From the NCBI GenBank assembly GCA_008632985.1, contig QPGO01000010.1, positions 558,001 through 622,000 of the forward strand: a stretch of 64,000 nucleotides of DNA, read 5' to 3'. The position numbers and the translations under genes are program-made. Of the stretch, positions 1 to 64,000 are shown piece by piece. The notes below the pieces were generated by a model, which saw nothing but the letters and a program-made list of their open reading frames with translations, was not told the DNA's origin and did not search any database. Positions within the stretch are counted from its first letter, which is position 1, and the number at the start of each line of letters is the position of its first letter. Source of the stretch: Psammoneis japonica. Taxonomy: Eukaryota.

Positions 1-1810
1 GTGCAAGTTCTGTCATTGTCACATGCTCACATTGCTGCCTGCAAACAAAAGGACCCAGCCAGTGAGCAAACTGCAGTCAATGATGGTGTGGGGGCACAGA
101 CAAGGCACAGCAACAAAATGAGGCATCATGACTTGGTTTGTGCTGCAGATGTTTGCAACAAGAGCTTCCCATGCCCACAGCGTGTTTCAGCACATTTTGT
201 CCTCTCACCCCCTTCTGGAGGAGCCAGCACACACTTGCTGCTCTCTTGCCAAAAATGCAGCTCAGCAAGTCAACTCTGCTCACATGTGCAAACAACTTTT
301 TTCCAAAGATGGCTTTGCTGCAGTTGCTCATTTGCAAGCATGGGGTGGAGCACCAGTTGGGAGAGTTGTCCATTGTTGTTGATCTGCAAGCCTGTTCCAG
401 CTCCAGGTGATCCACGATCCATCATGTGAGGTGCCAGCCAAAAAGTGCATTCAGCACAACAAACTTTTTTAATTTTGATTGTTTCAAAAATGGAAAGGTG
501 AGTGCACATTAAAAAAATTGTGCACGCTCACCCTTCTGAAGTTGGAGTTTGTTGTGCCAAATGCAAAAATGGGACAGCGATGCATCGTGCCCCTTTTTTG
601 GGCACCCCCTGGAGCTAGAGCAGGCCTGCAGCTGCACAAATCCAAAGATTGAAGCCCACTGCCAGCTGCAGATCCCTGCTTTAACTGGCAATTTTTAAGA
701 GCTGGATGTTGTCACTGACAAGAGCCAATCCATTGTTGCTGGTGGCGGTCATTTGGGAAAAAAGAGAACAAAATTTATGGACCACATTTGCCCACTTCAA
801 CCAGCCATTGAGACCAAAAGTGTTTCATTTGATGGAAGACAATTGCTGGTTGTGGCCACAGCACAAACACTCATTGTTGAGCAAATGCAGAACCTTGCCA
901 TTGCCTGGATGTTGATTGCAGCACCACACACTGTGTTGTTGTTGTTGTTGTTGCGAGGGACCATCGCTCTGCAACAAGAACCTTTGCAGGTGAGCAACAC
1001 AGCCTCCCCTCCCCACTGCCACCTCTGCCCTCCCTTGAATCTCTCTGCCCGTCACTTTCTTAAATTTTTTCTGGACATCTTACCCACCTGGGAGGGTTGT
1101 CAGTGCTGTCTTGAACTGCCACATGCTTGCAAGTTGTTGCCAAACATTGCCACGGGGAGGTGAGCACTGGTTTTGCCATCTTTTTTGTGCAGCTCTGGCA
1201 CTTTTCTCTTTCTTCAAACATCGCCACATTGACGACAGAGGAGCTCCTCTCTCCTTCTTTTTTCCATGTGTTGTGCACTTGTCAATGTTGTCAGGTGACA
1301 GCTGTTGACCACACACAACAACTCTCTTGTTTTGATGTTGTCAATGTCTGCAAAATTCAGCAGCAGTCTCTCCACACCATGCCATGGGATCTCTTTTCTC
1401 TCTTTGAGCATGTGCATCATGCCTCTCAAAGCTCTGCACAGCTGCTGGTCATCTGCCCCTTGAAACTCAACACACCCATGTGTTTTTGGACAGCAGATGC
1501 ATTCCTTTGCCCACACAGGCTCAAATTGTCTCTCTAAAATCACTGGTGAAAACGTGTTTGTTCTTGGTCCCCACACCAGCACACACTGGGCTTGTCCAGC
1601 TATCAAATTGCATTTCAATGCAGCATGATTCTCTCGAAGCTTTTCCGAGTCCTTTTTGCACACAATCATGGCAGAGAGGAACTGGTGGACAGCACATGCA
1701 TCATTCATGGTGTCACAATGTCCTCAAGTCGAGAGTGCCGTTCACTTGGCCGAGAGGAAGCCGCGTGTGCAATCCATCCACTGCAATCAGCGTGCGTTTG
1801 AGGCAGTCGA
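1..1810. repeat. Hypermutated, TpA-depleted repeat or degenerate-gene block
   Basis: Almost no TA and few CG dinucleotides, with a strong TG/CA excess. All ORFs are Cys/His-rich and Tyr-free. Normal composition resumes by about 1.95 kb. Confidence 0.7.
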
Positions 1811-4209: not shown

Positions 4210-4499
4210 CACGATGCAAATGGCGAGGACCAGAACTGCTTCACTTCGACGATATGTCCAAGATATGTCGGAATCCTAAATAAATTTACCCGCCAAATTG
4301 GCTTATATAATTACGAGACTCGCCAAATATTATATCATATATTCAAATTTTAATATTTTAATAATGAAAATTATATGCCAAAGACATTTATGTCACTCTT
4401 AAGTTACAGTATATAAATTGTTCGCCAAAGTTCACGGCCGCGCGCCGGTCGAAGAAAAATAATCTCATCATCCTCACAAAGGATCAGTTACAGGCAGTG

Positions 4500-4775
4500 T
4501 GACAGAAACTGAAGGCAAATGGCAAGAATTCAAACAATAACTCCTTACTGCTGTCTAAATAGCAGATGAGTCTCCGCTCAGAGACCGTTACAGGAGCCGA
4601 AAGACGTGTAAGTCGGTATAATCGGGCTACTGTTGTCATTCTTGTGAGCCTTGTGGCTCAAAAGCAAACTGCATCGCGCGCGAACGCGCGGAACTGAAGC
4701 ACACAAAACTGTGCGCGGCAAACTAAACAGCGCGCGATACTTCGCGCGCATCCAAATCCTGTTCAAATCCTGTCA
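4500..4775 (-). repeat. 3' LTR
   Basis: Direct repeat of 9921-10196, with 13 transition mismatches by my manual alignment. Confidence 0.97.
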
Positions 4776-7700
4776 CTCCCCAGTTTGCTTGAGGAGCCAC
4801 AGAAACAGATTCGACTTCGGATGGAATGAAGTTCCAGAACATGAGGGGGCGGAGAAGGTCCCAGATTTGGGAGCAACCCCAATGCTTGCTGAGAATGTCA
4901 GCAGGGTTGCGGGAGCCTTCGATGAAGTGGAACTCAAGGTAACCAGAGGCAATTGCCTCACGCACACGGTGGAACGACAGTGCGGTGTGTCGCTTGTGTA
5001 ACTTGGAGTGCGGGATGGTGGCACTGTCTACAACCGACTTGTTGTCACCGAACATGTAACTGACATTACGGATCGGGACGCCAAGGCAGCGCAGGGTGAT
5101 GCGCAGGTCGACAATCTGCTCAACACAATTCCTTGCGGCAACAAATTCAGACCCGCAGGTTGCAGTCTCCACGGTGGCTTGTTTCTTGGAGAACCAATCA
5201 GCCGGGAATTTGTTGAGGAAGTGGAGCATTCCCATGACAGAGCATCCGGTGAGCATGCAATGGCACAAGTTTGCATCGACGCAGTGGGTGGTAGTGACGA
5301 ACTTGCCAAGGGGCGGTGGAGCGTCCTTCGGGATCATCTCTTCTGCTTCACCACACACGGAATGCATCCATTCACAGGCCGGAGCAGGGAGATCCGAATG
5401 GTCAGGCTCTTCCGTGCGAACGCGGAGAGCACCGTGTCGCATCTTGGAGAGGTGCCCACAGACGCGTTTGGCACGATCCAAGTGGCCTTGACGGGGCGCA
5501 GCTCGGAAGCTAGAGAGTGACATGACGGCCGTGGCAATGTCAATTCGACCAAGGGACACTGCCCATTGGAGTGAACCAACAAGAGACTGGAACTTGTGAA
5601 TGCCATCGGGTCCCAGCAGTTCGGAAGTGTCCAGTTCGGGGTGGTCACCCTTCTCTAGAGGTGACAGGGCGTTGGTGGCAGGTTTCTCCCCAAACAGTCG
5701 GGCGTGGCTGTCGACCATGCGCTCGATGCACTTGCGCGGAGACAGGCACAAGGTTCCGTCGGGGTCCCGGGAAAAGTCGCAACCCAGATGGAACTCAATG
5801 GGTCCCGTGCCCTTGAGCTTGAACTTGCACTTTTCCGTGAGAGTGTCGACGAAAGGTTGAGGGTCCTTCATGGCAATGGCGAGGTCATCCACATAAACGG
5901 CAATGTGTTCACAGTGGTTGCCGTTCCTGCGCATCCAAATGTCGGGTTCAGCGCGGCAGGGGAAGAAGCCTTCAGCTCGCAGGCAGTCGGCGAAGCGTTC
6001 GTGCCAGCAGAGACCGGAGCTGCGCAGTCCACACAGTGCCTTGTGGATGACAAGGATGTGTCCTTCGAGTTTGCCAAATTCGGGTCCAGCTACAATGTAA
6101 AGCTTCTCCTTGGTGGTGGCCTCAAGGTGGGCATTGCCAATGTCGGTGGCCCATGTCTCCAGCTCGTTGAGTTCGGCCAGGAAAATCATCAGCCGAAGGC
6201 CACGAAGGGAGACTACTCCGGAGTGGACACTGTCGACAGGTACGTCCGTGAGGTGCCCGTCGGCTGCGAGTCGTGCCTTGTGGCGACCGTCGTGTTTCAC
6301 GTCGCACACCAGGTGCACTCGGATCTTCTTGTGTCCCGCAGGAGGAGTGGAAGACTTGAAGGGCCCGCAGTCATGGAAGACTTCGTATTCGTCGAGTTGG
6401 TCCATCTCGAGATTAGTTGCGTCTCCCCACTTGCGGTTGCCGCTGCATTCGTCTAGTGACATGGCGTGTTTGCAGTTCCGGGGAACTTCGCATCCGCACT
6501 TGTAGCGAGGTGCAGTGCGGAAGGAGCGAAGCTTGGCTTGGTTGGCCATGCGAAACAGTTTCTTTTGGCGCCTCGCGACAGTGCGGAACCGCTTCCAGCC
6601 ATCCGTGTCGAGGAGTCCGTTCTCTCGTGCATAGATGGCACAGGTGACGGGGTCGTCCTTGGCGATGATGGCAAGAGGCTCGGACGTGATCTCCCCACTT
6701 TCCCATTCAAGCATGATGTTGTAGCTTGAGCCTTTCCAGGTTGGGTCGTGAGGCTTCAGAGGTCCTTCGTGTGACACGATGCGTCGAAATTTCCAAACAG
6801 TGGTGTCTTCGTCTTCTTGCTCAATGTGATTCATGATGTCATTGCAGGCAAGGACTTCCTCGTGTTCGTCATTGTTGACAGAGCAGACGAACTTAGTGAG
6901 CTCGGGATTGCCGTTCACTTTCCATTCGTGGTCTTCGACGGCCTTGACGATGCGAGCTCTGTGGCGTTGTCCGTCCTCTTGTGGCTGCATGAGGAAGGTG
7001 CGTCCAATGATGTCTTGCGGATCGAAAACTGGCATCTTGGGTGTCCTGATCTCCCCATCAGGAGAATCGACGGGGTTGTCGTCATGGCGAGATTTGATGA
7101 TGGGTTCAGGTGGCTCCCCATCAGGAGGATCAAGACGCAGGTTTCGAACAGCAGGATCGGGGGTGGCGGAGTGAACGTTGGACCGGTGGAGGATCTTTTG
7201 AGTCTCGTCAGATGGGATCTTGAAGGTCATCTGGTGGCCAACGTGCTCAGCAATGCCAACGAAGCATCCGCGCAACTCATGGGATTCGGACGGCCAATCG
7301 GAGTCATCGAGGTGGAAGTGCACTGGTTCCCACCAGTGAAAGCGAAGCAATGGGCTGATGTCCGGGGTGGATCCAGTGAGAGTCTCGAGGGGCGTGCGCC
7401 AGTGGAGACGTGGGGATGCTGTGTGGTTGAGTGTGAAGCACACGCACATGAGCGCCAGCAGCCATGTGTGGGCGGGCGAACCAAAACGGTCCATGACAGT
7501 GTTCGCCATGCGCTTCACGGTCTTTTCCGAAATGGCGTCCACATGTGCAGCGGAGTCACCACAGTCAGCAGGAGTCGTGTTGGACAAGTTGACATCACCG
7601 TCACTCCCAAGGTGTTGGTCGTGAAGGTTGGCCGCAACAGACTCATGGCAGTCACTGGCTCGCGGGTTGCGGGGAGGCGGACGAGAGTGCTCAAGGATGA

Positions 7701-8979
7701 TCGCCTTGGAGGAATCGGGCAACGAATCCCAGAGCCGTTGGTGGTCGGGAGGGAGACGTCTCCATTGGACACCGGTGAGGCTGGGACCACGGGTGCAGGC
7801 AGCATTGGCTTGAAGGACGTCAACGTCGCTGTCAATGTCGCAGAACACATCGTCGGACGGTTCCTCGGAGTGGACGTCGTGTGCGCACATGGCGCGTCGG
7901 GGAGCTCGAGGTGTCGTCTTGGGTTGAAACGTGCTGTCGCACTGAGCTGCCGCGGAGAGGAGCAAGCCACAGTGTTGATCGCATGTGAGGCTCTTGCCAC
8001 TCTGCGCACGATGCTGATCAGCTTGGTCCTTGACAGCACGGAGTTCCTCGACAGGGTGCACGGCATTCTCGAGCATGACGCGCTTCTGTCCTTCAGAGAA
8101 GTGGTCACTGGCGGGGATGAGTGCCTCGCACTTGCGCAGCTGATCTTGCCAATGAAGGATGAACCCGTGGGTCGGACCTTTCCAAGTGCCATCACCAAGA
8201 CGTGCGGTGGTGAGGCATGTGAGCAGGGTGGAGGACTCGACAGATGCACGGGTGGAGGCAAGCGCGCATTCAGACAAGGAGCGGCAGACGGTCTGTGCGT
8301 CAGAGGACCCCACATTTTCGCGAATGAGAGCCTTGCCCTTGTCGGTGAGAAGGATGCGTTCGAAGACGGCGAACATGTGCTTTTGCTGTTCAGCAAAGAG
8401 CAGTTTGTCTTCGGGGCTGGTCGGTTTGTACGACGAGTCTAGAATGCACTCGACGTCTTGGGCACGGGCTTGTGCCACAAGTGAGGTGTGCCAAGTGTGC
8501 CACTGCTTGTCGGATTTGAGAGCCATGAAAGCGGTGGGATCACGCTTGATGCCTCGCTTGAAGTCTCGCACCGGGTCGCGTGCCTTGGTCGGGTTGGTGA
8601 CATGTGGAGGTGCAAGGGGTGAGCTGCCGATGGACAGAGAGGACATGCAGTCCGGGCTGAGGCGGCAGGCAAGGAACTCGTCATGCGTGAACAAAGAGGA
8701 GTCGTTGGCAACGTCAAGACCTTTGTGTGCTTTGACAATGCACAGGCTGACCAGTGCTGCTAACATGTTCTTATAACCACGGGGCAAAGGGATCACATTG
8801 GTGCCGTTGTCGCACTCAAGCGAGTCGATTTGGGACGGTGTGAACGTGAACAGTTCCTGATGCGAGTCCGTGCCGTCTTGGGCCAAAGCCAAATGAAGAG
8901 GACTCCCAGCACCTTGGGCAAGCACGGTTCCAACAACGTGCTCGAAACCATCGGTTTGTTGCTGACGAGTGAGAACCAT
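4723..8979 (-). pseudogene. gag-pol polyprotein (gag, C-terminal part of integrase, RT, RNase H); open frame but probably non-functional
   Basis: RT motifs 'DVKHDGRHKARL', 'DIGNAHLEA', 'KALCGL', 'YVDD'. RNase H motifs 'SKKQATVETATCGSEF', 'GDNKSV', 'NPADILSK'. A chromo-like segment 'WKFRRIVSHEG...LEWESGEITSEP' is present. No protease or integrase HHCC/DDE core is visible. Many expected Tyr residues read His or Cys. Confidence 0.9.
4776..4786 (-). other. Polypurine tract
   Basis: The minus strand reads AAACTGGGGAG immediately before the TG of the 3' LTR. Confidence 0.8.
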
Positions 8980-9903
8980 GGCAGACAAAAGTGGTGTCAG
9001 GACAATCAATTCTGGTTGGGAAGCGAAGGTGGACTCGAAACTTGGGTGAGAACAGACTTGACTTGAAACAGACTTGACTTGAAATCTTGAACTGTCTTAA
9101 AATCAGAAGTCGCCGGGCTTTGTCATCCCGTTCGTTGTCAAGTGCTGAACTTCCCATCCGGTCCGTAGAGTTGTGCCGGCACGTCCGAACCCGCAGCTGG
9201 CGGCGCTTTGGGTTGCTTGCGAGCGGAGCAGCGGGTTGCAAACCCCTGCAGGTGAGCTGACCAGAGGTGGACAAGACCCCCGAACCGTTCTCATTTTAAA
9301 TCGGTTGGATTTCCCGATCAGGCTGGCCAGTTGACGCAGGCGTCAGGTGCTGTGGACGAACGAACAAACGCGGGAAAGCACCCTCGCCCCAACGCAGGCT
9401 GCAATCACGGCTGCTTGCTCTCACAGTCGTCCTCGTGGACCTGGTAGAACTGCAGAGCACCAGCAGTCCGGGGTGGATCAGGTGCAATGGACTCGGTGTG
9501 CTTGTAGAGTGGCAGCAAAACCGCAGTCCGAAGAGTGGGTACAGGTTCTTGGCCGTGAAGACATGCATATATGTGTGCATGTCTTCAGCGACGAAGATCC
9601 TTGAATATGTGGGGTTCTTGACCGTTAACCGATGAACAGGTATATCAAGGGATGAGGATCAAGGATAGACTTGGATATGACCGTTGAATGTATGTCTTCA
9701 GCGATCAAAGGTAGCACAATCAAACCAGATGTCCAGCGGTAAGGAGACTTGACGGTGACGTTAACTTCCTGCCGATGCCCTGGCATTGGATGCGCGTAGA
9801 CTTGCCGATGTATGTAGAACATATACGGAGGTCCACGTAGAATTGAAATAGCGTCGTTGGTAAATCAACGACGACGATGGCGGTTGCTCAATGGGTTGAC
9901 AAT

Positions 9904-9920
9904 GAGCAAGACTGTTAATC
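9904..9920 (-). other. Putative primer-binding site complementary to a tRNA-Asn(GUU) anticodon arm
   Basis: The minus strand after the 5' LTR reads GATTAACAGTCTTGCTC. Its complement GACTGTTAATC is an Asn anticodon stem-loop sequence. Confidence 0.55.
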
Positions 9921-10196
9921 TGACAGAAACTGAAGGCAAATGGCAAGAATTCAAACAATAACTCCTTACTGCTGTCTAAATGGCAGATGAGTCTCCGCTC
10001 AGAGACCGTTGCAGGAGCCGAAAGACGTGCAAGTCGGTGTGATCGGGCTGCTGTCATCATTCTTGTGAGCCTTGTGGCTCGAAAGCAAACTACATCGCGC
10101 GCGAACGCGCGGAACTAAAGCACACAAAACTGTGCGCGGTAAACTAAACAGCGCGCGACACTTCGCGCGCATCCAAATCCTGTTCAAATCCTGTCA
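9921..10196 (-). repeat. 5' LTR
   Basis: Direct repeat of 4500-4775, followed by TSD CAGTG. Confidence 0.97.
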
Positions 10197-10259
10197 CAGT
10201 GCGTGGCTCTCTCCACTCTAGAGCCAGCTGCAAGAGCCAGGAGTAGAGTAGAGAGAAAG

Positions 10260-11000
10260 AATGCAGAGCGAGCAATCAGCACACACAATGCTTTTGCAAG
10301 CCGAGGTCTTCTTGCTTGGATCGTCTTTGAGCTGTCACTTGCTCACACCCTGCCTTCCTCTCTTGCAAGTGTGCCGCCCAAACCTTTGCACGCAAGCCTG
10401 TGCTTCTTCTTCCAGCACATCCACTTGGCATGGGCACTGTGCACAACCACCGGTGTGCAACAGTGTGCAAGCTGTGCTGTTTGGAGGTTGCAAGGCATGT
10501 GCCATGGGGTCAAGAGCAGCTGCAGTGTGGGCACAGCAGCAGCGCAAGCTCACAGGTGTGTGGTTGTTGTTTGCAGCAGCAGTGGCATCATTGGCCAGAA
10601 AAACAGGCATGTGTGAGAGAGCTCTCTCTGCCTTTTTCTGGCGTGATCTCTGGGGTGCCACCCTGTGCGATGGCAGCAACACTTGGCTCACTTTCAACAA
10701 GCAGCACTGACAGCACATGATGTCTTTCCAGGTGGCAGTGCTTGCAACAATGTGTTCTCTGCTGCTGTGGCCATGTGCTTGTGACACAAAAAAAGCCACT
10801 GCACACGTCTGCACCCCCAGCCACAACAGAGAGGAGAGAGAGCTGGCGGGAAGAAGAAGGCAAAGGAAAAAAAAGAGAGGTCGGCACACACATGTGTGCA
10901 CTTTGGTTTCCCTCTCCCATGCAGTGCAACACATTGAAAGTCCCTTGACCTCCACCTTTCCATTTGATTGAAGAGCACAACAAGAATGAATCACAAATTT
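10260..11000. repeat. TpA- and CpG-depleted block flanking the retrotransposon
   Basis: No TA seen between about 10260 and 11295. Strong TG/CA excess and no recognisable protein. Confidence 0.6.
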
Positions 11001-11424
11001 GCTTGATTGGTCGAGCGAATCATCGAAGGATCTTCCGTGCGTGCCGCCGCGTGGATGCTTGTGGATGTTTTCGCGCGTGCGTGGAATCATCCAAAATGTG
11101 GCGCATCGTGGCGAGTTGCATGCGAGACGGGCACGTCGTGTGGTTTGTTGCGTGTCAACCTGAACGACGATCCGCAGTCTTTCTCCTTCCTTCGCCACGA
11201 CTTGTTGCATCCAGGCAAGTGAAGAAGGAGTCGGCTCACAAGTCCACCCAGCTCGATCTCTTTTGCTGTTTCAGAGAAGAGTTGATTTCGTTCCTTAGAG
11301 AAGAAAGAAGCGACGAGAACGAACATACCGTTTCCGTTTTTCGATAGATACTGTTGAGCTCCCGGCTCAAAACCCAATAGAATCGGTGCTTCACAACCCC
11401 CAAAACAAAAGAGAACGAGTAAAC

Positions 11425-39349: not shown

Positions 39350-41000
39350 TTAAAGAAAACATCCAGCCCACTTTTGCTCTGATAAATGAATAAAATGAAA
39401 GCCCTTGGGGGCTTCAAAACGGGGAAAGGTGTGAGAAACAACTTTGTTGCAGCTCGGGCGGCCGTGGAGCCAGGAGGAGCAGCTTGGTGTGGTGCAAGCA
39501 AGGTCCCACCCAGAGCTGGAGAGCATCAGATGACAGAAATGCATGTTTTCTGTCATTGTTCAGGTCCTCACACCTCTGGCATTTGGCACACAAAGTGTTG
39601 AGCCTTGAAAGGAAACTCTTTGAGAGGTGGTCCTCTTCTGTTTTTGTTGGGGAAACACAGCAAAAAATTGCAAAATTGACAAGCGAGTCCAAAGTCACTC
39701 CTTGCATCTCAACTAAAAGAGACATGAAACAGCAACAAGCCAGCACCACACACAAAGGCTTTGCAGGCCACCCTCTGACAATGCTGGTGTGCACTCAACA
39801 AGACACCATGATGTGTTTTGTGGTGCCTTGTGCCTTTCTCACCACATGAGAACATCAACATTTGCTTTGCATGAGTGGCAATGCTCTTGAGAAACTTCAC
39901 TTCAACACATGCCAACAAACAAGAGGATCTGAGCAAAGAAAAAGCAGGAGGAGTGAATGGCTTCTCTGGATCTGCTGGCGTCTTTCTTGCTGCTGCTCTG
40001 GCCAAGTGTGTGTGTTGCGCAAGAAGCCAGGCAGTGAAGGGAGTTCACAACAGGGCCCCAAAATGATCTGACTGCTCACCCTGTGGCAAGGGGTGCAGCA
40101 ATTTAGAAAAAGCCAGAATGCATTGAAACCTCAGCAAAGCAATTGATGCATTAAAAATTTCCATGTTGGCAGCACTTGTGTGTGTGTGTGGTGGGCAACA
40201 ATCTCTCTCATGTGATTGGCGCCAGCCCCTGACAGTGTGTGTCTGTTTGCAAAGAGAGTTTGTCACAACATTGATTTTGCAGCACAACATTTCAAAGGAA
40301 ACTCACTGAACAATGAGTTGAGAGCAGTGGTGGTGGTCATGTCGGCACTGTCTGGCAGAGCTGCAGGACATGAAAGGGACAAAAACAACAATCTTTTTTG
40401 CTGTTGCAGCAACTGCACCTTTCAAAGATTGCAGAAACGCCAATTGAAAAATGGCACAGGCTCTTAAAGCCAACACCAACATTTTGGCTTGTTGTCAAAA
40501 GGATGATGATGTTTGGTGTGTGTCTTTTGTGCATTTTTGCGCATCTGTTGCTGCTGTTGCACAGCATCATTTGAGGCAAAGCAGCGCTGCTGGAAAAGCT
40601 CCAGAGAGTCGCCACAGCCAGAGTGCGCACTTCCTCTTGGCTGCCACCAGTGTGCTGAATGCCTCCAGTGTTTGCCAGTGCAGGTCTGTCACAACTTCCT
40701 CAGTTTTCAGGGTGTGTTGGTGTGCACCTTGTGCGCCAGTTGGCTGGCTCTGCTGCTGCAAGACAGGCCCCCCAGCACGCACAGAAAGAGCAACAAACAT
40801 GTGGCGAGTGGTTTCCAGAGGCAAGAAGGGGAGGCAGGCAGTGGCATCCCCACCTCTGATGCTGCACATGCTAGCAGCTGGAAGCACCTGTGGTTGTAAG
40901 CAGTTGTCAACTGTTGTGATTTGTCATCCTTTTGGTCCCAAAGGAAATTCGGTGCGCTCATGCACATCCGCCCTGTGCTGAACCGCCAAAGTCAGTCATG
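39350..41000. repeat. TpA/CpG-depleted intergenic block, probably an eroded transposable element
   Basis: Sharp compositional switch between two normal genes. Only a handful of TA remain. No clear TIR or TSD found. Confidence 0.6.
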
Positions 41001-52986: not shown

Positions 52987-54600
52987 GGCTCTTCGTCTCA
53001 TTTCTAAATCTTTGACTGCCAGACATTTAAAAGCACACTAACACATCCACTGAATGTTGGTGGTGTAGCCCTCTGTCGGCTAACAAACCCCAGCTGAAAG
53101 CTCGGCCACCAGTTGGGCTAGAACCCCAGTTAGATTCGGTTGCATTGGCCCACAGGCACACCAGTGTGATTTAAACAGAACCCGGGCCCACGCCGCATGA
53201 GTTCGAATCACCAGCCTCTGCAGCTCCAGCCGATGCAACAGCATGGAAGAGCAACAGAGTTGCTCCAACGAGGTCCAAGCATGAGCTGCTGGCCACGACA
53301 CCCTTGCATCTGTGGCGTCTCAACCAGGTGGGTGGGAGGGAAAGAAACAACAGCCAAAGGCTTGAATCCTTCAAAAGCCGTGACAAACAATGTGCAATTG
53401 CAGATGTTGCGGAGGATCTTCACGCAGTTTTGAAGGTGCAACTTTTTATGAGACATGTCAGAGTGAAATGGAGGGAGAGCGAACAAGTGTTTCTGAAACG
53501 AGAAACGAGTCACTTTTGCAGTGGGAATCACTTTTGCAGTGGGAAGAGTGATTCGAACCCCGACAACTGCTGACACACCTTGACATTCTCGTTTTCCAAA
53601 AAGGGCTCTCCCTTTGCTTCTCATCCCAAATGCTGTAAAGTGTTGTGCTTGTCATTTGACAAGAGAATTCAACAAAAACAATCGCCGCAACAAACCGCGC
53701 GACTGAGACATAGAGTCAGTGAAAAATGTCCAGCCGCAGTCCACGATCAAGATGCTCGACTCAGTGCCTGGTGAAGCCAAAGGTGCAGATTGGCTCTTTG
53801 TCTCATTTCCAAATCTTGGGCTGCTGGACATTTAAAAGCACACCAACACATCTGCTGAATGTTGGTGGTGTGGCCCTCTGTCGGCTGACAAACCCTGGCC
53901 GAAAGCTCGGCCACCAGTGAGGCTAGAACCCCAGTTAGATTCGGCTGTGTTGGCCCATCAAGAACAGGCGCTAGTGATTTTAATGGAACCTGGGCCCATG
54001 CCACATGAGTTCAAATCACCAGCCTCTTCAGCTCCAGCCAATGCAATGGCGCAGAAGAGCAACAGAGTTGCTCGAAGAGCCAAGATGCAACCGACGAGGT
54101 CCAAGCACAAGCTGCTGGCCACGACACCCTTGCATCCATGGCATCTCAACCGGGTGGGTGGGAGGGAAAGAAAAAACAACCAAAGGCTTGAATCCTTCAA
54201 AAGCCATGACAAGACAATGTGCAATTGCAGATGTTGCAGAGGATCTTCACGCAGTTTCGAAGGTGCAACTTTTTATGAGATGATGTCAGAGTGAAACGGA
54301 GGGAGAGCGAACAAGTGTTTCTGAAACGAGGAACGAATCACTTTTGCAGTGGGAAGAGTGATTCGAACTCCGACAATTGTTGATGCCTTGACATTCTTGT
54401 TTTCCAAAAAGGGCTCTCCCTTTGCTTCTCATCCCAAATTGCTGTAAAGTGTTGTGCTTGTTGTTTGATGAGAGAATTCAACAAAAACAATCACCGCAAC
54501 AAACCGCATGACTGAGACATGAGTCAGTGACAAATGTCCAGTCGCAGTCCACGATCAAGATGCTCGACTCAGTGCCTGGTGAACCCGAAGGCACAGATTG
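52987..54600. repeat. Tandem duplication of about 805 bp
   Basis: Copy 1 spans about 52987-53791 and copy 2 about 53792-54600. They are collinear along their length and differ mostly by transitions. Confidence 0.92.
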
Positions 54601-55459
54601 CGCTTGTTGGTGGTTCAGGAGGGGGAAATTTGACTTTCAGCACATGCAAGAAGGCAAATGCTGCCGCTTGTTGTCTTTTTGTGACAGCCCATCTCTGGAA
54701 AAGTTGTGTGTGCCTTGTTCTTCCATGCACCTGCTCACAAGGCAAAAGACAACCCCAAGAAATTGTTGTTGGCAGCACCAGGACAAGAACCAAAACCACA
54801 AAAAAAGTTCACACAACTGCCTTTGGATGACTGTGCTGGTGCAGCTCCACAATGTTTTCACCATGGCTTGCCCTTGGGGTCAATGTGGGCTGCCAGAGCA
54901 GCACTCTCCAGCAAATGAATGACTGTCTTTGGCTTGCTGGCTGTGCCAGCTAGCTTGGCACACCCTGCATGGAAGAAGAGAGAAAGAAAGCCAGCAGCTG
55001 AGAAGGAGACATCATCCATGCACATTCTCAATGCTTCTTCTGAAGCAAGAAGAAGGCAGAAATGGGGCAACAATGAACACTTGGTTTGGCATGATCTCAG
55101 GCAGCCAATGGACTGACATGCTGCACACAAGCTTTTTGTTTGCCATTCACAGCTTTGGCACCAGGCAAACGAGTCTTCCTGCTGATGAGCAGAAAAGCTG
55201 GTGCTCCTGCAATGTTTTGCCAGCACCCACTCCATGTTGTTGCCCACTCTGCACGATCCTGTCTGGAATCTAGAGCCAGAAAGGAAATTTCAAATGTGGC
55301 GCCACTTTCACCCCCATGCCTTGCTGAAGCTGTGGGTTGTGGTGATTCTCCCCATGTCTTTCTCCATGATCTGTTTGTTCTTGGCTGCTGTGCCCCAGCA
55401 GTGGTTTGGAACATTGTCAAGATCCAGCCCCGCACAGCACTCAGGAATGCAGGAACATC

Positions 55460-56700
55460 AACAGCAGTGCAACTGCAGTGGATTTTTGATCATGCACTCT
55501 GTGATGGCCAAAAACTTCTCTTGATTGTAGCAGAAGTGACTGGAAGCACTGCTGACAGCTTTGTGCACTGACACAAGATCTCCATTGACTTTTTGGAGCA
55601 GTTTGGACAGATTGTCCAGCAGGGTGCAACACCTTGCAGCACACAACAAGATGGAACACAAGCTGAAACATTGCTGTCTTTTCCTGCAACTTGGAGCTTT
55701 CCCCAACACTTCCACCTTTGTGCCTTTGTTGCCAATTGTTGAGTCCAGCATGAAATGCACAAGATCATGGCAGTCAAAGCCATGCATTCCCTGCAACTTG
55801 AGTGCATGTCAGAGAAAGCCACAAGACCTCCCTCAATGAATTTTTTGCATTTGGCTTCTGAGGATTTCTTGCAGAGCTCCTTCATGAAATTTGCAAGAGC
55901 GTCATGCTGCATTGCTGAGCCACCCAGCCACAAGGTTTCAAATGTCCAGTCACAATGCAGAGAACATGTCATCAAGCAATGAGGGAACTTTTGAGAGTGC
56001 CTGGCTTTGCACAATCTGCAATGCAATCCATGCCATGATGCTCCTCTCAAGTGTGAACCCATTCTGACAAATGAGCGCCAATTGAGATCTGCTCATGCAT
56101 GGCAATGTCCTCAGCACACTCATCAACCTGTCATCAAACAAAACAATGATTGACTTGCAGGTCTTGTGAAATGATGGAGGCAGATCTTGGAAGTTGAAGT
56201 TTCCTGTTTTCACTCAAGACAATGTGGAACAAATCACACCTGGCAGATTGCACCCAGATGCTCATGGACTCAAACTGTGTGCTTGGCACCTTTCTGTGTG
56301 CACAACTCATCTCATCGTGTAAGATCCTTTGCCATTGGTTCTGTTCAATGACAAGCCATGGTGAGCTGGACAATGCAGTGCTCATGAAAGTGGTGTCCAG
56401 AACTCAGCATGCTGTGATGTCAACAAAGCTCTGCTCTCTGCTGGCAGCTCTCTTCTGTGAGTGCATTGTTCACAAACAGTGATTTGGCAGAGTCTTTGTG
56501 ATGACTCTCTGTCAGGTGAATTTGAAGGGGGGGCAGCATTTGAAGCTCAGTGAGTGCAAGTCACCACTTCAATGCAACAGAGGACATCATGACAGCTCCA
56601 TTTTTGGCAGTTTCTTAACTTTTGCTGGCATCAACATGAGCCATTGTCCTGTCTCCCCATGGCTGCTTTGGAACACTGGGGACATGGCCTGAGCTCATTG
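55460..56700 (-). mobile_element. Eroded hAT-like transposase remnant, copy A
   Basis: 'LSAVLPVTSATIKRSF' matches the hAT dimerisation-domain pattern 'LPVTSA..ERSFS'. 'IEGGLVAF' is shared with copies B and C. Confidence 0.6.
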
Positions 56701-56849
56701 TCAACAATGAATCTTCACTCAAAGGACTTGAAGAGCATGATGACCAGCGGACATGTTGGGTGATGCCACAGACACCTTGAAAAACATGATGACATCAGTG
56801 GCATCATGTTGGGCAATGCTGCAGATGCCTCAGGGTCTTGAGGAGCATC

Positions 56850-58700
56850 AACAGCTTTTGCATCATTCACGGCTGTTGGCAAGTTGCTTGTGGCTTCATG
56901 AGAGTTGGCTTTTGCACCACTTGAGCACAACTGACAATTTTGAGAACTGTGTGCACTTTCTCCTTGTGTCCATGGATCAATGGTTGTCCGCAGAAGTAAA
57001 ATGATTGCCGTGAGTTGCACAAAAACAATGAGTGGGTTCATTGCCTGGTTGACAGTCACCAGCTTTGTCCACCAAAATTGAAGCAACTGGTTCAACCACC
57101 AGGCCTTGGTTGCAAGTGCCATGAATGTGACAACATGACCAATGAAGAAAAACCAAGGTGTCATCATGCATGTTGTGTCAAGCTGACTGTCGGCCTCCAA
57201 CCCTCTGGCATTTCATCCCAAAACAGAGTGTGAAAATGGCCAAGTTTGTGATGAGTGAACCCATGCACAAAGGAAAGAGAAACAATGATTTGGCTTTCAG
57301 GAGGGTGACTTTGGACCCTCCAAAATTGAGAATCAATGCAAGGGCACAAACTGACAGGAAACCAGTGTGACTGCAAATGTTGAAAGTCCAAACACTCAAA
57401 CACCCTGTGAGACAGGAAGTTGTTCCAGATGCCAAGGAGCATCACACACCAGACTTCTGGCTGCAGCCATTCCTGTTGGCAAAAGAGGTCCCTTCAACTC
57501 TTCATTGATTGTCGACAATTGTTGCCACTCTCAGTGGTGGAAACAAGCTTGGGGCAGTGAAAGTTTGCATTCCACCTTGGGCCATTGTCTGACCCTGGAC
57601 ATTGCACAGGTCAACTGAAATGTCATCTGGACAAGCATGACAGTGCTCTTCCTCATCAAATCTTGTGTGACCTGATGCACCTTGAAAGCTCAAATTTATC
57701 ATGCCAGCAAGCATTCTTTCATCAAGGCCAATTTTGGTGGAATCCATTTCTTGGTCCAGCTTTGCATCCTCCAATGCAAAGTGTTGTTGCAGCATCGCAA
57801 GTGAATGATGTCAAGGTGTTTGGTTTGTTCTCTGTGAAAGCAATCACCAGTTGCCTGAAAGAAGCATGCATCATTGCCTGCCAGTGAAGAGCAAAGAACA
57901 TTGAGAAAATCTGCAAAGTTGATGCCCTGATCTCTTTGAGCTTTGAGGAAAGGGTCGCTGTGTTTTGCTGGCCAAAGCTGATCCATCTGGTCAAACACAA
58001 ACAATGCATTTGTCAACAGCTTGTCTGAGGAAGATCCTTCCTCTGCCTTGCCAAATGAGTTGTCAAGTTGATGGTCTGCAGGAAAAGCTGCAGGAGGTGA
58101 GATGATGCAGAGGTGGTCTTCTCCGAGTGGGCCCTGCTCATTGATCACTTCAGTCATGCTCTTCAACACTTTCAGATCCACCAAAGGTTTGTTGCCACAA
58201 CCACACTTGCATCTCTTCCCTCTTTTCAAAGGCTTGCACAACAAAGTTAGAGCCCTCATCTGCAGCTCCAACAAGTTCTTTCCCCCCTCTTTTGTTGAAG
58301 AATCTTTGTCATCACCTTTGCTTTGGCTTTTGATGTCTTGATCACTGACAAATTTTTGTCAAGAAGCTCTGCAGCACAAGCATGGAACAAGTGGTTGATT
58401 CTTTCAAGTGCCCCAATGAATGATGCCCACAAATGGGATCCTGTCTAGAGTCTCACAGAGCCAGGGCACCACAGTGCAAGTGAAGCAAGCACCCTCACAC
58501 ACCATGTGACCCAAAAGAGCACTGTCTCTCCCATGATCAGGGGATGGGATGAGCAAGGAAACTGCAGCGCAAAAAAAAACCAAATTTGGCACTGTTTTCA
58601 CCCCTGTTCCATGCTGCCAGTGAAACGTGATTGTCGGGGCTCTCTGCTCATCTCCCATCCTTTTGTTGCAGTGCACCTTGTCAAGAAGATCCAGCTCTGT
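56850..58700 (-). pseudogene. Hypermutated class C (GABA-B-like) GPCR gene remnant
   Basis: Fragments 'FQGASGHTRFD', 'LFLFPLCMGSLITNLAIFTL' and 'LDTTCMMTPWFFFIGHVVTFMALATKAWWLNQLLQF...TIDPWT' resemble diatom 7tm_3 receptors. Frameshifted and Tyr-free. Confidence 0.75.
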
Positions 58701-58759
58701 GCAGATGCAGGAAAATCAAGAACAGCACATCGAGTTGCTCCTGTGACATTTGTGACCAC

Positions 58760-59880
58760 AGTTGGTTTTTGATGCCTTTTGTGGTCGAAAAGCTTTTCTC
58801 AATTCTTGTGACAGAAAAAACTGGAAGCACAGGCATTGTGCTCAGTGCCCTTTCAGGCAAGCTTTTGTTGGTGCCACTGCAGTTGGTGGATTGGGTTTGC
58901 ACAATCCTTCTCAATGGAGCTGCTTGTGGGGAAATTTGACTTTCAGCATGTGCAAAAAGGCAGTGCTGCCACTTGACAGCCCATCTCTGGAAAAGTTGTG
59001 TGTGCCAAGGATTGAGTCCTGCATGAAATGTGTGGGATCATGGCAGTCAAAGCCGCTCTCCATGACTCAAGTGTTGCAGCTCCAGAAAATGTTAGAAAAA
59101 GCTGCAAGACCTCCCTCAATGAGCCCTTTCTTGCACCTGGCTTCTGGGCACTGAGGATTCCTTGTTGCACACAGAGCTCCTTCATGAAATCTGCAAAGAC
59201 AGTGTGCTGCATTGCTGAGCCAGCCAACCCAAGGTTTCAAATGGTTCACAATGCAGAGAGCAAGGGAACTTTCTCCACAGCCTTTTCAACCACCAAGTTC
59301 AGTTGCTTCACTGTGCAGTGTGAACAGAATGCCTGGGGCAAAATCTGACTCATGAGCACCTGAAGTCCACATGTGTCCCCAACATGTTGGGTGCACCATC
59401 ACAGTCCTGATCATGCATTTGCAGCTTGAGAGATCTGTCACACTGATGCCACATTTTTTGTTGAGGAGGAAAGCAACAATGGTGCTCTGGCATTCTCAAG
59501 GCAGAGTGCCCGACTTTGCATCTGTGACACAAACCATGCCAAGATGCTCCTCTCCAGTGTCACCCTGTTCTTGGCACAATGAGCACCTGTTGACATCTGC
59601 CCATGTTTGTCATGCATTGCAGACAGAATCTCAAACATCAGCCTTTGCCCCTGTCTGCATCAGATCTCCAAAAGCCTGCATCAATGGAATGCAGAGAGTG
59701 GAGTGCTCATTGTCCATTTCTGCTGTGAACTCAAACAGCTCCATTTCTTGTCACATGGGTTGGGTGACCAACCAAGATTGCTGTGCACATCATGTTTTCT
59801 CTGCTTGCCATGACTGCAGTTTCAATGGCATGGTGTGGAGGTTTTTTGGCAATGTGCTGCAATGCTTTGAGGGAAAAGAG
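58760..59880 (-). mobile_element. Eroded hAT-like transposase remnant, copy B
   Basis: Nucleotide similarity to 55740-56100 and 60150-60900, e.g. 'gatcatggcagtcaaagcc' and 'caagacctccctcaatg'. Its end also matches 52965-52985 and 54620-54715. Confidence 0.55.
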
Positions 59881-59939
59881 TGAGCAGAAAATCAGACATT
59901 CCATAAAAAACAGAAGCAATCTTTTCTCATTTGATCTTG

Positions 59940-61300
59940 TTGAACCATGAAAATGATCACAAAATGTCCCTGTTGACTTTTTGAAGCAGTTTGGATGGGT
60001 TGTCCCAGTGTTGGTGGGTGCAAGAACACCTCACAGCAAACAACAAGTTGATGGTGGAGCACCAGCTGAAGCATTGCCATCCATTCTTCCTGCCAACCCA
60101 AAGCTTTTCCCACTGCTTCAGTCTTCATGCCTTCATTGTCAACAGTTGAGTGTGCAGTGTGAAACACATGGGATCATGGCAGTCCAAGCCATTCTCCATG
60201 ACTCAAACGTTGCAGCTCCAGCATGTGTCAGGGAAAGCCACAAGACCTCCCTCAATGGATCCTTTGCACTCAGCTTCTGAGGATTGCTCCTTGTTGAAAT
60301 CCTTCACAAAATTTGCAAAAACAGCGCGCTGCTTTGCAGATCCATCCACAAGGTTTTGGATGGTTTGCAGTGCAGAGAACATGTTGTCAACCAATGATGC
60401 ATTCTTCTCCACAACCTTTGTTCCAACCACCATCAAGATCAGTTGATGATGCACCATGCAGTGTGCACAGAATGCTGAAGACAAAATTCATCTCATGAGT
60501 GCCCAAAGCCCACCTGTGTTCCCCAACGTGTTGGGCACCACACCATTGCAACCACCCTGCAGTGCAGTTGCAGTTTGAGATCCTCTGTCACACTGGCACC
60601 ACATGTGTTGACATTCTGGCATTCTCAAGCGTGTTGGACTTTGCACCTGCAATGCAAGCAATGCCAAGATGTTCCCACTGTCCAGTGATCCCATTCTTGA
60701 CAAAATGAGAACCAACTGACATCTGCTCATGTTTGGTGATGTCCTCACACTTGCTGACAACCACAGCGGCAAAGACAGAAAATTTGCAATGTCAGCATTT
60801 GCCTCTTTCTGCATCAGATCTCCAAAAGCCCAAATCACTTCGTTTCAAACATTGGCGTCAATGCAAAAAGCATTTTTGGGTTGATTGGAGTGCAGAGTTG
60901 AGCGCTTGTTGTTCATTTCTGCTGCAAACTCAAGCAGATCCAAAAAAGTTGCTGTAGCTGGGTGTGTCAGTCCATTCCTGTGGGATGCACCTGCCTTGGT
61001 GCACTGGTGCTGCCAACACTGTCATCAGCATCTTCCTCCTCCTGTGGACCACCAGCATTGCTGTGAGATGAACATCTTGGTGCAAGTGACTCTGACTTGT
61101 TGCTCTTTTGCTGCAAGCAGAAATCTGCTCCAGCACACAGGTGCCTGTGGTCATTTGGCAATGCTGTGCTGACCAAGTTGAGGGGTTCATCAGTCTTGGT
61201 CTTTAGCTCTTTCACAAATTTCTGAGACAGAGTGGTGCCCCTTGTGAAGTTGGCAGGGTTGCAGTGCATGCAAGTTGCTTGTTCATGTCATGAACCTGCT
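59940..61300 (-). mobile_element. Eroded hAT-like transposase remnant, copy C
   Basis: 'IEGGLVAFPDTCWS' is interpretable as the hAT 'TRW' motif after a CGC>TGC change. Collinear with copies A and B. Confidence 0.55.
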
Positions 61301-64000
61301 GGTGCCTCAGCAAAATGCCACAGCTGAACAAGTGCTGGCAGTGTGCTTTGTGCTCATGAGCCTCCTCTTCATCATGAACACTCTCATGATCTCCATGTGC
61401 TCATGGCTGTTGCAGCATTCTTCAAAAACATCACAAGAAATGCTGTTGTGCAAGAAGAAGGAACAACAACCACAACTGCTTCATCAACAAGACTCGCCAG
61501 GACTCGCAGTTGACTCACACAGCACTCATGATCTTGAGCCACAACCATGGCCACTTGAGAGACATGATGAATGGATGCAGCTGTTTTGGCCGCGGTTGCA
61601 AGCCATGCTCTCTCTGGCCAGCTCTGCTGCTGGCAGAGCTGCTCCACTGGCCAGCCACTGCTGCCAGCACTCTAGAGCAGACAGCAGACAGCATGGGCAG
61701 TGCAACTTCATTGGTTTTGGTGGCAAGCATGAACTCCTGTAGAACGCACATGTGGAGCATTGCACCACTCCTGCGAGAAAAAGACATTGTGCTCTGCAGG
61801 TGGCCAGACAGCTCAATCAAAAGATGCACCATGCCGGCACCAATCACCAGCTGTTGTTGCATGCTTTGCAGTTCACTGACAACGTCTTGGCTGGCAAGAC
61901 CTTTCTAAAGCATGACTGCAATGTTGGGCCTGCTCAAGAACGTTCAATGCTTCCTGCCACTGGCTGAGGGACAGCTCCAAGCCACTGACATCTTCCATTG
62001 AAACTCTTCCATGCCAGCTGCAGCTCCATCATGCCAACCAATGCCCGACTCTGCACCATGCCCTGGGGCCCTGCCAACACTGACGCCTCCTCAGACAATG
62101 TGATCAGTGCTGCCAGCCACACCGGGGCCAATGCTTCCACCTGCATGGGAGCCTGCTGCATCCTCCACTGCTGATGCCTTGGCCCACACCGTTCCCCGTT
62201 GCCTGGACTTACGCCATCACCAATCTGGGCAATGAGCCTCTCACTGACGCAACGACACAAGACAGCAAGGGAGATTGGTCACAAACCCCGTCCGTGGTGA
62301 TTCAAATGGGGACGGAAAGTTGGATCCAACCAAAACGTGGGTGCACGAGGCCTGTGGAACCACCAATGAGGGTGTGTCACCTCCTCTGCCAATGCTGCCA
62401 TCCAATGCTTCCACCTCCACTGGATCCAACTGCGTCCAATGCTTCCACCTCCATTTGAGCCGGCTGTGTCCTCCACACCATTGCCGACACTGCAACTCTG
62501 GGTCTCACACGATGGCACCGCACACTCTAGATCCTGCAATGCCTCCTTCACCACCTCCAGCACCCTCAAAGCAGCTGTCTCTCCGCCAGCATTTCCACCC
62601 AAAAGCCACCATTGATGCCTCAACCCACACCATTCCCAACACAAACAACGGCCACTGCATCATCAACCTCCCACCCGTCTCCAAGCCCGCACCTCTGCCT
62701 GTGCCACCATCCACCCCTCCACAATGCCAATGCCAACTCCAACTCCAGGACACACCTGACAAGCCCCCCCTGCCATTCAGCATCCCACACCCCTGCCTGC
62801 TCCAGGTCCTGCAATGCCTCCTTCGACACCACCAACAACATCGCCGTTTTCAGCCTCCACTCCAACAAACGACTGGCACTCGAATCTCGAATCCCAACTT
62901 GCCCCCCACTCTCTGCCCTGCAGAGAGTCCACAGAAATGCCAACACATTGTGAACAGGATTCTAGAGATTCCAAGCAAGCCATGTGCAATGCGACCACTC
63001 TGCGACAACATGGCATGCATGTCAATCTCATCCACGTGTCATGAACAATCAAGAGCCGCTCGACAAAAATCATGTGGAGCTGTCTTTGTTCCACTGAACA
63101 ACACAACAAACTCAAAATTGCGAGCGCTGTTTCCAAAATTCCAGACATCGCCAAAGATGCATCACAAAGCATCTGTTGGCTCAACCCGGGAAAAACCGTG
63201 TGAAGCAAATGCGCACCACATGCATCGGATCTTTTCGCTGCAAAGGCATTGATGCAAGAGGGCACTGCACCAGCCAAATGAACAATGGGCAAGTGCCAGA
63301 TGCTCATGCAACCCTGGAAACCTTCAAAGCACGAATGTTCCAAATCGGCACAGCACACTTGACACAGACAACCAAACAGAAAAGATGAAATGACTTCAAG
63401 ACAACGCCATGCCTCGAGTGCAACAAAGCGCAAGACACACAGTGTGTTGAATGATTGACACATTTTGAGAGTGGAGTGCTTGAGTTCTTCTTGTTCTGCC
63501 ATGGGGTTGCAATTGGCTTGCTTCTGCTCTCTCTCTCTCTCTCTTCTGAAGAATCAGACATCCACACCGGCATCTGTTTGAGCGCTGCTGTCCTCTCTTG
63601 TCTCCTTGTCCTCGCGATCAAGCACACACCCGAACTCAGAAAATTGAGCAGCAATGGCAGGACACATGCAAGGATCTGCAGGAAAAGACACACAGATTGA
63701 AATGATGGTGAGACAATGATTCCCCAAACACAGCAGATGCGCACCACATGGCTTTTCCAATGTGCGGAACGAGTGACTTGCACTTTTGAAAGGAGAACAC
63801 TCGAGTGCTTCCAACTCGTCTTCACCCCAAGGATCGGATGGGATCGCTCATCTTTTGCACAGGTGGTTTCGTTGACAAGGAGGCAATGCTGTGGAGGACC
63901 GCACCGCCGCTTTGAACATCGTGTTGACGGAAAATGCAGAAAAATGCTTTCGATCAGCCAAACGCAGGGCATCACAGTTGGACACGTCACAATTTCAGTA
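61300..64000. repeat. TpA-depleted degenerate sequence of unidentified origin
   Basis: Same composition as the other eroded blocks, with a C-rich segment. No family recognised. Confidence 0.5.

Follow-up and report, generated by a model that had tools for sequence, protein, structure and literature searches.

Results

A non-autonomous copia element without TpA in its core

We analysed 64,000 nucleotides of contig QPGO01000010.1 from Psammoneis japonica (positions 558,001 to 622,000, hereafter the window). At 4500..10196 the window holds a long terminal repeat (LTR) retrotransposon that, like several neighbouring stretches, has lost most of its TpA dinucleotides (TA), probably to a locally targeted process. 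The element lies on the minus strand and is flanked by a 5-bp target-site duplication, CAGTG, found at 4495..4499 on its left and again at 10197..10201 on its right. Between 3500 and 11500 a repeat finder returned a single direct repeat (4500-4776 and 9921-10197, 95% identity). Alignment resolves it into two 276-bp LTRs, both on the minus strand: in element orientation the 3' LTR at 4500..4775 and the 5' LTR at 9921..10196. Their ends read TGACAG...CTGTCA, by alignment and by a per-position count. Inspection of the sequence shows a putative polypurine tract adjoining the 3' LTR (4776..4790, minus strand; ...aactggggag on the element strand), whose purine run GGGGAG directly abuts the repeat. 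No tRNA-complementary primer-binding site is recognisable after the 5' LTR, tRNA genes having been left unscanned.

The coding region is a stop-to-stop frame of 1457 codons (4723..9096, minus strand), which frame calling and Pfam identify as a decayed Ty1/copia gag-pol. Its one Pfam domain is RVT_2 (E 5e-24). Metagenome polyproteins of about 1700-2070 amino acids that carry PF07727 share 57-71% identity with the frame, and protein searches at near and at shorter length returned no relative above 71% identity. Against six relatives (tblastn), two blocks of the frame meet at an in-frame internal deletion junction, 7510..7524 on the minus strand, where about 446 residues are deleted (approximately 499-944 of the full-length relatives). 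Read-set contigs of other copies diverge in their continuation at 7523/7526. We infer that the deleted stretch carried the protease and the integrase. Neither has a Pfam match in the element, which hence does not qualify as autonomous.

Two TG...CA LTRs, a 5-bp duplication and a gag-pol frame with RVT_2 identify 4500-10196 as a non-autonomous Ty1/copia LTR retrotransposon, protein-dead and with an internal deletion, whose family is highly repeated. The 64-kb window holds no second copy of it, and tblastn with six copia polyproteins found no copia relics in the window outside 4798-8979.

The ratio of observed to expected TA is 0.25 over the whole element and 0.13 in the copia frame, while CG in the frame stands at 0.88. 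The initial annotation had claimed that deamination of 5-methylcytosine (5mC) cannot account for the pattern, and this pair of values bears it out. A core of about 1.5 kb (6895..8428) has no TA at all and a normal CG density (123 CG in 6751-8400). The leader that adjoins the 5' LTR (9500..9920, minus strand) has a normal TA density, with 22 TA in 420 bp.

The two LTRs have lost different TAs

Counted position by position, the LTRs differ at 13 places, without gaps, and every difference is a transition. At seven sites the left LTR has TA where the right one has TG or CA; at three sites it is the right LTR that has TA. Two neighbouring differences form a reciprocal TG/CA pair (4634-4635 / 10055-10056), and the last is a lone CA/CG difference (4660/10081). 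The initial annotation had reported the same LTR length and the same tally of 13, ten, one and one, and our recount agrees with it exactly. It had also stated that each LTR lost TAs that the other keeps. This is the case: the 3' LTR is without three TAs kept by the 5' LTR, and the 5' LTR is without seven kept by the 3' LTR. In total there are 11 TA sites in the left LTR and seven in the right, with four in common, and 21 and 22 CG sites, with 21 in common.

Exchanges between TA and TG/CA make up about 21-23% of the possible LTR transitions, and the probability of at least 10 among 13 is 3e-5. For the TA-destroying class, 10% of the possible transitions, it is 2.5e-8. Read in element sense, the 5' LTR has undergone five T>C and two A>G changes and the 3' LTR two T>C and one A>G. 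Per site and lineage there were 10 events at 28 TA, one at 44 CpG and no isolated change elsewhere. Each lineage has thus lost about 36% of its TA sites, and the roughly 200 other positions of each LTR show no isolated change. From these event rates, TA loss outpaces CpG decay.

Protein comparison shows that TA was destroyed

To orient the changes, we aligned the copia frame with 60 relatives and defined conserved columns by at least 80% agreement, which gave 622 columns. The frame is identical to the relatives at 536 of them. The 38 columns with conserved Tyr hold 7 Tyr, 18 Cys, 9 His, 3 Phe and 1 Trp in the copia frame. Conserved His (25/25) and Cys (6/6) are fully retained and all other residue classes are kept at 74% or more, among them Lys (35/41) and Asn (16/19). 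The composition of the frame (Tyr 0.7%, Cys 3.4%, His 5.1%) can be set beside the mean of 120 relatives (Tyr 3.84%, Cys 0.91%, His 3.54%).

At the codon level, 61 differences could be resolved as unambiguous single steps, with seven ambiguous and 18 multi-step differences besides. A>G accounts for 25 of the 61, and 22 of these follow T (two follow A). T>C accounts for 11, all of them before A, so that 33 of the 36 polarised A>G and T>C changes lie in TpA. G>A (four) and C>T (three) occur exclusively in CpG. Altogether 36 of the 43 polarised transitions in the frame are A>G or T>C, and the other seven are of CpG type. None of the 61 single-step changes creates a TA.

Hence the direction that the initial annotation had proposed, TA to TG or CA and opposite to fungal repeat-induced point mutation (RIP), is confirmed, with 27 of 38 conserved Tyr now Cys or His. 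The annotation had also considered that the family itself might be TA-poor with His or Cys at these sites, or that A>G might show no preference for a preceding T. The second idea is contradicted by the 22 of 25 changes above. As for the first, the relatives have more Tyr than the frame and the TA content of their DNA is normal: 26 of 27 related metagenome loci have a TA ratio of 0.51-0.85, the exception being a single contig (L003) at 0.27. When the loci and the window copy were compared with 40 relatives by tblastn, 39-85% of the relatives' Tyr proved to be retained in the 27 loci and 13% in the window copy, where 38% of these positions are now Cys and 22% now His.

The exceptional contig, a copia relative, comes from an unrelated metagenome. 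In its stretch L003:751-3516 it holds 0-4 TA per 250 bp, following a first 750 bp of normal TA. The drop begins where the copia-like part begins, and CA and TG are raised there. The change of Tyr to Cys and His is weak (0% and 12%). The contig may represent a second organism in which this process operates.

Other copies in the read set

We also compared the window with reads from four runs of one sample in one study, possibly the sample from which the window was assembled. Contigs were built from exact 31-mers and placed on the window at 80% likeness. Single-copy flanks have a depth of about 58, and the element has a summed depth of 60,000-149,000 from 12,349 contigs (a sum that is not a copy number); the copia family is highly repeated. 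In run X1, variable places number 89 for A>G, 101 for G>A, 89 for C>T and 98 for T>C, and 6-13 for each transversion class, giving 377 transition places versus 68 transversion places.

Codon mapping covers the best-supported 40 of the 449 variable places, and the counts in this paragraph refer to these 40. Among the 29 that lie in the frame, 15 fall into nine codons that encode Tyr in 48-60 of 59-60 relatives. At these nine codons the genome's copies are a mixture of TAY, TGY and CAY, which means that different copies lost different TAs. At codon 1123 the window has TGC and 90% of the depth has TAC; at codon 1215 the window has CAC and 43% has TAC; at codons 1347 and 865 the window keeps TAC and 32% and 55% of the depth, respectively, has TGC. 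At codons 958, 1022, 1131, 1233 and 1337 two adjacent positions vary, which fits descent of both TGY and CAY from TAY. Five CpG losses are private to the window. One of them is codon 642, which is CAC in the window and CGC (Arg) in 100% of the depth and in 60/60 relatives.

The reads also cover depleted DNA outside the element. Contigs at single-copy depth (57-67) differ from the TA- and CG-free flanks at 2/953, 10/723 and 4/1555 positions (0.2-1.4%). Contigs of accurate reads thus reproduce the flanks, which disfavours a base-calling artefact of long reads. On the question of raw-read support that the initial annotation had raised, the answer is therefore divided: contigs from one sample support the single-copy flanks, and they stop short of the LTR bases of this copy.

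TA- and CG-depleted domains across the window

The initial annotation had confined the phenomenon to 4500..10196. The element is indeed affected, but this extent is too small, as further domains lie at 1-1700, 10250-11295, 39400-40870 and 53000-64000. Sliding windows give a TA ratio of 0.09, a CG ratio of 0.16 and CA/TG of 1.8-1.9 for the first domain (1..1700), which is moderately repeated in the read set. The flank at 10250..11295 is without TA, and its part 10250-11010 is also nearly free of CG. Dinucleotide counts put 39400..40870 at TA 0.04 and CG 0.19. The largest domain (54300..64000) runs past the end of the window, has internal repeats and contains 21 TA in 9.7 kb. It is entered through a transition zone from about 53000, and a TA-free stretch that partly retains CG reaches to the window end.

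Both TA and CG are nearly gone from 1-1700, 10250-11010, 39400-40870 and about 54300-61700, with TA at 0.00-0.09, CG at 0.12-0.23 and CA/TG at about 1.8-1.9 of expectation. Only these two of the 16 dinucleotides are depleted in the domains. Across the element and the domains together TA is 0.03-0.13 and CA/TG 1.3-1.9. Normal parts of the window have TA at about 0.57 and CG at about 1.0. Normal DNA contains 0.038 TA per bp, for which the expected longest TA-free gap is about 183 bp; the element contains a gap of 1535 bp (6894-8429) and its flank one of 1047 bp (10249-11296). The edges are sharp, with seven TA in the 100 bp left of the element and a TA ratio of 0.66-0.86 in 3500-4500. The domain sequence is complex and not microsatellite. 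A search coded in purines and pyrimidines, blind to transitions, found no hidden homology between the depleted domains.

Two tandem units of 806 bp (52987..54600, 86% identity by repeat alignment) represent an intermediate state, with TA at 0.06-0.31 and CG at 0.50-0.56. Their differences include 13 reciprocal CA/TG pairs, 20 of CG versus CA/TG and four of TA versus CA/TG. Three other repeat pairs in the depleted domains have 18, 17 and four reciprocal CA/TG pairs, other classes of adjacent double differences in the domain repeats occur at most five times each, and two control repeats of normal DNA have no reciprocal CA/TG pair. Such a pair arises when an ancestral palindrome, TA or CG, is converted independently in each copy after duplication.

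The order of loss can be read from the different states: the copia frame has a TA ratio of 0.13 at a CG ratio of 0.88, the 806-bp units lie in between, and in the old domains neither TA nor CG has been spared. TA loss thus runs far ahead of CpG decay, and each of the two exceeds the background rate.

The large domain includes a relic of a gene for a class-C G-protein-coupled receptor (GPCR)-like protein (7tm_3; 56931..58433, minus strand, tblastn). In a Pfam search of 60 frames from the depleted domains, the only matches were a sub-threshold 7tm_3 and one chance-level DUF1853. The 7tm_3 match belongs to the frame 56718-57212 (minus strand), which has true relatives (phmmer E 3.6e-15). Aligned with 39 relatives, which are not independent of one another, the relic keeps Tyr at 0/107 positions and Arg at 20/334, with 85 changes of Arg to Trp and 46 of Arg to Gln. 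Most other tallied residues are kept at 33-66%, Glu at 17%. This decay gives the direction of change for both arms of the old domains, TAY>TGY as well as CGN>TGG/CAR. The process is thus not limited to mobile elements, as a relic of a host-type gene is affected.

Near the left end of the window the reads differ from the assembly. Eight of the ten displayed differences from run X1 outside the element (seven events) fall in 1-1677, six of these seven events exchange TA or CG with TG/CA, and at eight listed places there the window letter is absent from the read set. These differences could be ongoing polymorphism of the same process, or could come from a paralogous contig.

Neighbouring genes and further observations

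The stretch 11299-39071 is gene-dense ordinary DNA with long unbroken frames, among them a protein with three cold-shock domains (11299-15264), a pirin (15747-16577, minus strand), a TELO2-like protein (22066-24426) and a protein kinase (37635-39071, minus strand). The pirin has no identical counterpart in the protein database. Its best named relatives are all from diatoms (52-57% identity), and metagenome proteins reach 74%. The window is thus most likely diatom DNA and not from Bigelowiella, whose sequenced proteins should have given matches at 100% identity.

Just upstream of the cold-shock-domain gene, the 285 bp of 11010-11295 have no TA, with about nine expected at normal density, and 12-13 CG per 100 bp. 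They are thus in the state of TA loss without CG loss also seen in the copia element. At the other end of the window, 61700-64000 is TA-free with CG at 0.48, TG at 2.04 versus CA at 1.50 of expectation and a GC skew of -0.23. It has frames of 334, 258 and 231 codons without a Pfam or Atlas match, and may be another element at a stage where TA is gone and CG is going.

Open frames that are on the wrong strand or non-genic also occur at 6775-8442 (plus strand, 555 codons), 10338-11270 (minus strand, 311 codons) and 62248-63249 (plus strand, 334 codons). They are spurious products of DNA that, being TA-free, contains neither TAA nor TAG.

Discussion

Our results show that TA was lost in a fixed direction, in TpA context, on both strands, within sharp local limits, before CG and also outside retroelements. 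Probably, a locally targeted process acts on chromosomal DNA and turns TpA into TpG or CpA in this element and in the neighbouring domains, a process of the same kind as that in the chlorarachniophyte Bigelowiella natans. Such a process would convert A:T to G:C within TA, a palindrome, on either strand, and would have removed about 80% of the TAs of the coding region, including all of them over 1.5 kb. As A>G and T>C cannot make stop codons, the frame stayed open although the protein is ruined. Together with a slower decay of CG to TG or CA, probably through 5mC deamination, the same process would leave neighbouring domains without TA and CG. Our best guess at the chemistry is deamination of adenine to inosine; modification of thymine would give the same footprint.

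A chromosomal process is the better reading, because each LTR has been changed on both strands and the signature recurs outside retroelement DNA. The initial annotation had claimed chromosomal, post-insertion changes on both strands. The two strands are borne out and the chromosomal origin is favoured. We infer that the process acts after integration in this copy, is enzymatic, and is a defence aimed at silenced or repeated DNA. Confinement to regions with normal DNA alongside is evident; since one domain is copia and one holds a host-type gene relic, the affected DNA is not all foreign.

Several observations weigh against this account. The leader at 9500-9920 has normal TA and sits between the depleted frame and an LTR, the LTRs themselves being moderately depleted, which is contrary to what a uniform chromosomal process would produce. 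Either its intensity varies over hundreds of bases, or much of the loss predates insertion and only templates with intact cis sequences were copied. The window copy is 2.4-2.9% off the longest contigs of three low-coverage runs, and in run X2 the differences are nearly balanced in direction (79 G>A and C>T, 63 A>G and T>C). Part of the TA loss was thus probably inherited from a mutated source copy. Much of the loss may predate insertion, and the post-insertion share is uncertain. Short-read contigs end at the LTR edges (2035-4494 and 10239-11793), the family being highly repeated. Hence the LTR bases of this copy come from the assembly alone, and in a family of such high copy number, polishing with paralogues could create apparent differences between LTRs. 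All reads share one sample and study, possibly the assembly's own source.

Other points concern targeting and chemistry. Repeated sequences include the copia family, domain 1-1700 and 53-61 kb, but the flank bins 10401-11200 are at single-copy depth, so that a process aimed at, or induced by, repeats is not established for every domain. Strand-coordinated CA/TG patches were absent in runs tests (z between -2.5 and +1.5 for the domains and between -1.8 and -1.2 for normal DNA), and thus nothing points to a processive single-strand deaminase. Finally, the 61 polarised changes include 18 transversions, which are ordinary divergence from relatives that are only 57-71% identical.

One could also argue that the pattern was made during retrotransposition, by A-to-I editing of RNA or adenine deamination of single-stranded cDNA, and was then inherited. 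Several features of the family suit this idea: the swarm of copies differs mainly by transitions (377 versus 68 in run X1), the copies have mixed TAY, TGY and CAY at conserved Tyr codons, the window copy closely resembles abundant variants that have undergone conversion too, and depletion is weakest in the cis-acting leader and the LTRs, as if only transposition-competent templates had spread. Against it, ADARs are not known outside animals. Sense-strand changes in the frame are of both kinds, with 22 A>G in TpA context beside 11 T>C, and both LTRs have changes on both strands (5+2 and 2+1), where editing of strong-stop cDNA predicts one strand per LTR. The signature also occurs in tandem duplicates, the GPCR-like relic and flanks, all without retroelement features. 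We therefore regard editing during retrotransposition as unlikely, even though a preference of ADAR for a 5' U, noted in the B. natans preprint (10.64898/2026.01.13.699255), would fit the context.

A chromosomal process could, alternatively, act on the other base of the pair. A TET/JBP-type dioxygenase might oxidise T at TpA to 5-hydroxymethyluracil or 5-formyluracil, which mispairs with G and yields T>C. As TA is palindromic, the footprint would be identical to that of adenine deamination, and the similar numbers of TA>CA and TA>TG and the lack of strand runs are equally compatible with it. According to older literature, dinoflagellate DNA carries hydroxymethyluracil preferentially at TpA. 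Such a base or enzyme is without support in this organism, and the sole experimental precedent proposes an adenine deaminase, itself unproven (10.64898/2026.01.13.699255). We consider thymine chemistry improbable, to about the same degree as editing during retrotransposition.

It is very unlikely that no targeting is involved, with TpA and CpG hypermutable throughout the genome, neutral DNA drifting to a TA- and CG-free state and selection holding TA in genes. TA is already low in normal window DNA (0.57), and all affected segments that we could identify are non-functional, as this would predict. The sharp edges contradict it, since apparently non-coding DNA left of the element has seven TA per 100 bp and 3500-4500 stands at 0.66-0.86. 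Furthermore, the LTRs lost about 36% of TA per lineage, a pace at which neutral intergenic TA would likewise vanish. Scarcely credible is an artefact, whether errors of base-calling or polishing at modified bases or a mosaic assembly of paralogues. It could draw on the high repetition of the family, on contigs that break at LTR edges and leave the LTR sequence to the assembly, and on the eight listed places in 1-1677 where the reads have only the other letter. Yet contigs from exact 31-mers at single-copy depth match the TA- and CG-free flanks with 0.2-1.4% differences, the mixture of TAY, TGY and CAY is present in the read set itself, the unrelated contig L003 carries the same signature, and the decay of the proteins (Tyr to Cys or His, Arg to Trp or Gln) is coherent over kilobases.

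Among further candidates, we reject selection against UA in mRNA, since it could not account for the loss of conserved Tyr. We likewise reject GC-biased gene conversion, which would affect all A/T sites, yet AA, TT and AT are near normal. The initial annotation had also listed error-prone synthesis of the Pol-eta type (WA>WG). It is weakened, although not eliminated, by the scarcity of changes at ApA: two A>G after A versus 22 after T, with Lys kept at 35/41 and Asn at 16/19.

If the process is confirmed in a diatom, TA hypermutation would no longer be a curiosity of one chlorarachniophyte and would become a candidate for a widespread defence or mutational mechanism in ecologically dominant algae. 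One can go further and imagine a chromatin- or repeat-directed system of DNA adenine deamination common to algae of the stramenopile-alveolate-rhizarian (SAR) group (rhizarians and diatoms), which together with 5mC deamination would erase TA and CG, both of the palindromic pyrimidine-purine dinucleotides, from silenced DNA, kill mobile elements and leave stop-free "zombie" frames. We offer this as a tentative idea, held with more doubt than confidence. If it is true, the high-copy copia family of the diatom would be a natural place to look for both the enzyme and the targeting rule.

There are practical consequences as well. TA-free DNA is nearly stop-less, and gene finders will call spurious long frames in it (555, 311 and 334 codons here). 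In such genomes, dating by LTR divergence will give ages that are too high. A DNA activity that occurs in nature and is strictly specific for TpA would also be of interest for base editing.

Comparison with known systems

RIP in fungi converts CpA and TpG to TpA, and thereby enriches TA and creates stop codons. What we describe resembles it in context-dependent transitions on both strands, in the inactivated elements left behind and in sharply bounded compositional domains. The direction is the reverse of RIP, as TA is destroyed here and no stops arise. A paper on Rhizoctonia deals with ordinary RIP indices. Neither the TA gain nor the stop codons of RIP appear in the copia frame: 0/61 changes create TA, His (25/25) and Cys (6/6) are intact, and 1457 codons are open.

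APOBEC3 and AID act during reverse transcription and produce G>A on the plus strand only, in GG or GA context. Deaminase-type hypermutation that inactivates retroelements is common to both cases, but here the changes are A>G and T>C at TpA, occur in both LTRs and extend to DNA that is not a retroelement. Hyper-editing by ADAR is similar in its A>G changes, its preference for a 5' U and its targeting of repeats. It differs in that it operates on RNA and is known from animals; it would leave sense A>G only in the progeny, and the LTRs could not differ. Restriction to one strand, as expected from APOBEC3- or ADAR-like activity, is not what we find (22 and 11 changes in the frame, 5+2 and 2+1 in the LTRs).

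Within diatoms, elements are reported to be CpG-methylated and DNMT4 to be related to fungal RID (PMC9998398). The decay of methylated CpG accounts for the arm from CG to TG or CA in the old domains, and 7 of 61 changes in the copia frame are of this type. It cannot remove TA, and in copia TA is nearly gone at a CG ratio of 0.88. The relation of DNMT4 to RID bears at most on the CG arm.

The initial annotation knew of no description of TpA hypermutation. This part of it does not hold, as a 2026 preprint describes TpA-only hypermutation in B. natans (Mettrop et al., bioRxiv 10.64898/2026.01.13.699255, dated 2026-04-14); other descriptions, or any in diatoms, were not found in a search of full-text literature, outside which subscription journals lie. 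According to the preprint, 231 of 302 nuclear single-nucleotide mutations in a mutation-accumulation experiment fell in regions of integrated giant virus and virophage, and A>G or T>C made up 230 of these 231, without exception at TpA. The rates, seen in some lines only, were about 6e-7 and thereby some 1000-fold over background. TpA-depleted genes were enriched in reverse-transcriptase and DDE domains, and an ADAT2-like adenine deaminase was proposed (10.64898/2026.01.13.699255).

Both cases share TpA>TpG/CpA on both strands, sharp local restriction and clustered TpA depletion with CpA and TpG enrichment. B. natans is a rhizarian alga, whereas the host of the window is most likely a diatom, a stramenopile. 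Its targets are viral, and its giant-virus region is single-copy; here they are a high-copy LTR retrotransposon and relics of repeats and genes. TA is depleted to 0.03-0.13 here versus 0.45 in the Bigelowiella giant-virus region. CG loss is coupled to TA loss here, and the main text of the preprint does not contain the words "CpG", "diatom", "LTR" or "retrotransposon". The rate in Bigelowiella was measured in real time; here the LTR pair provides only a relative estimate. Hence, the process is not categorically new, as it matches the one measured in B. natans. New here are the host lineage, an LTR-retrotransposon target with an internal clock, the near-complete conversion, the loss of TA before CG and the relic of a host-type gene.

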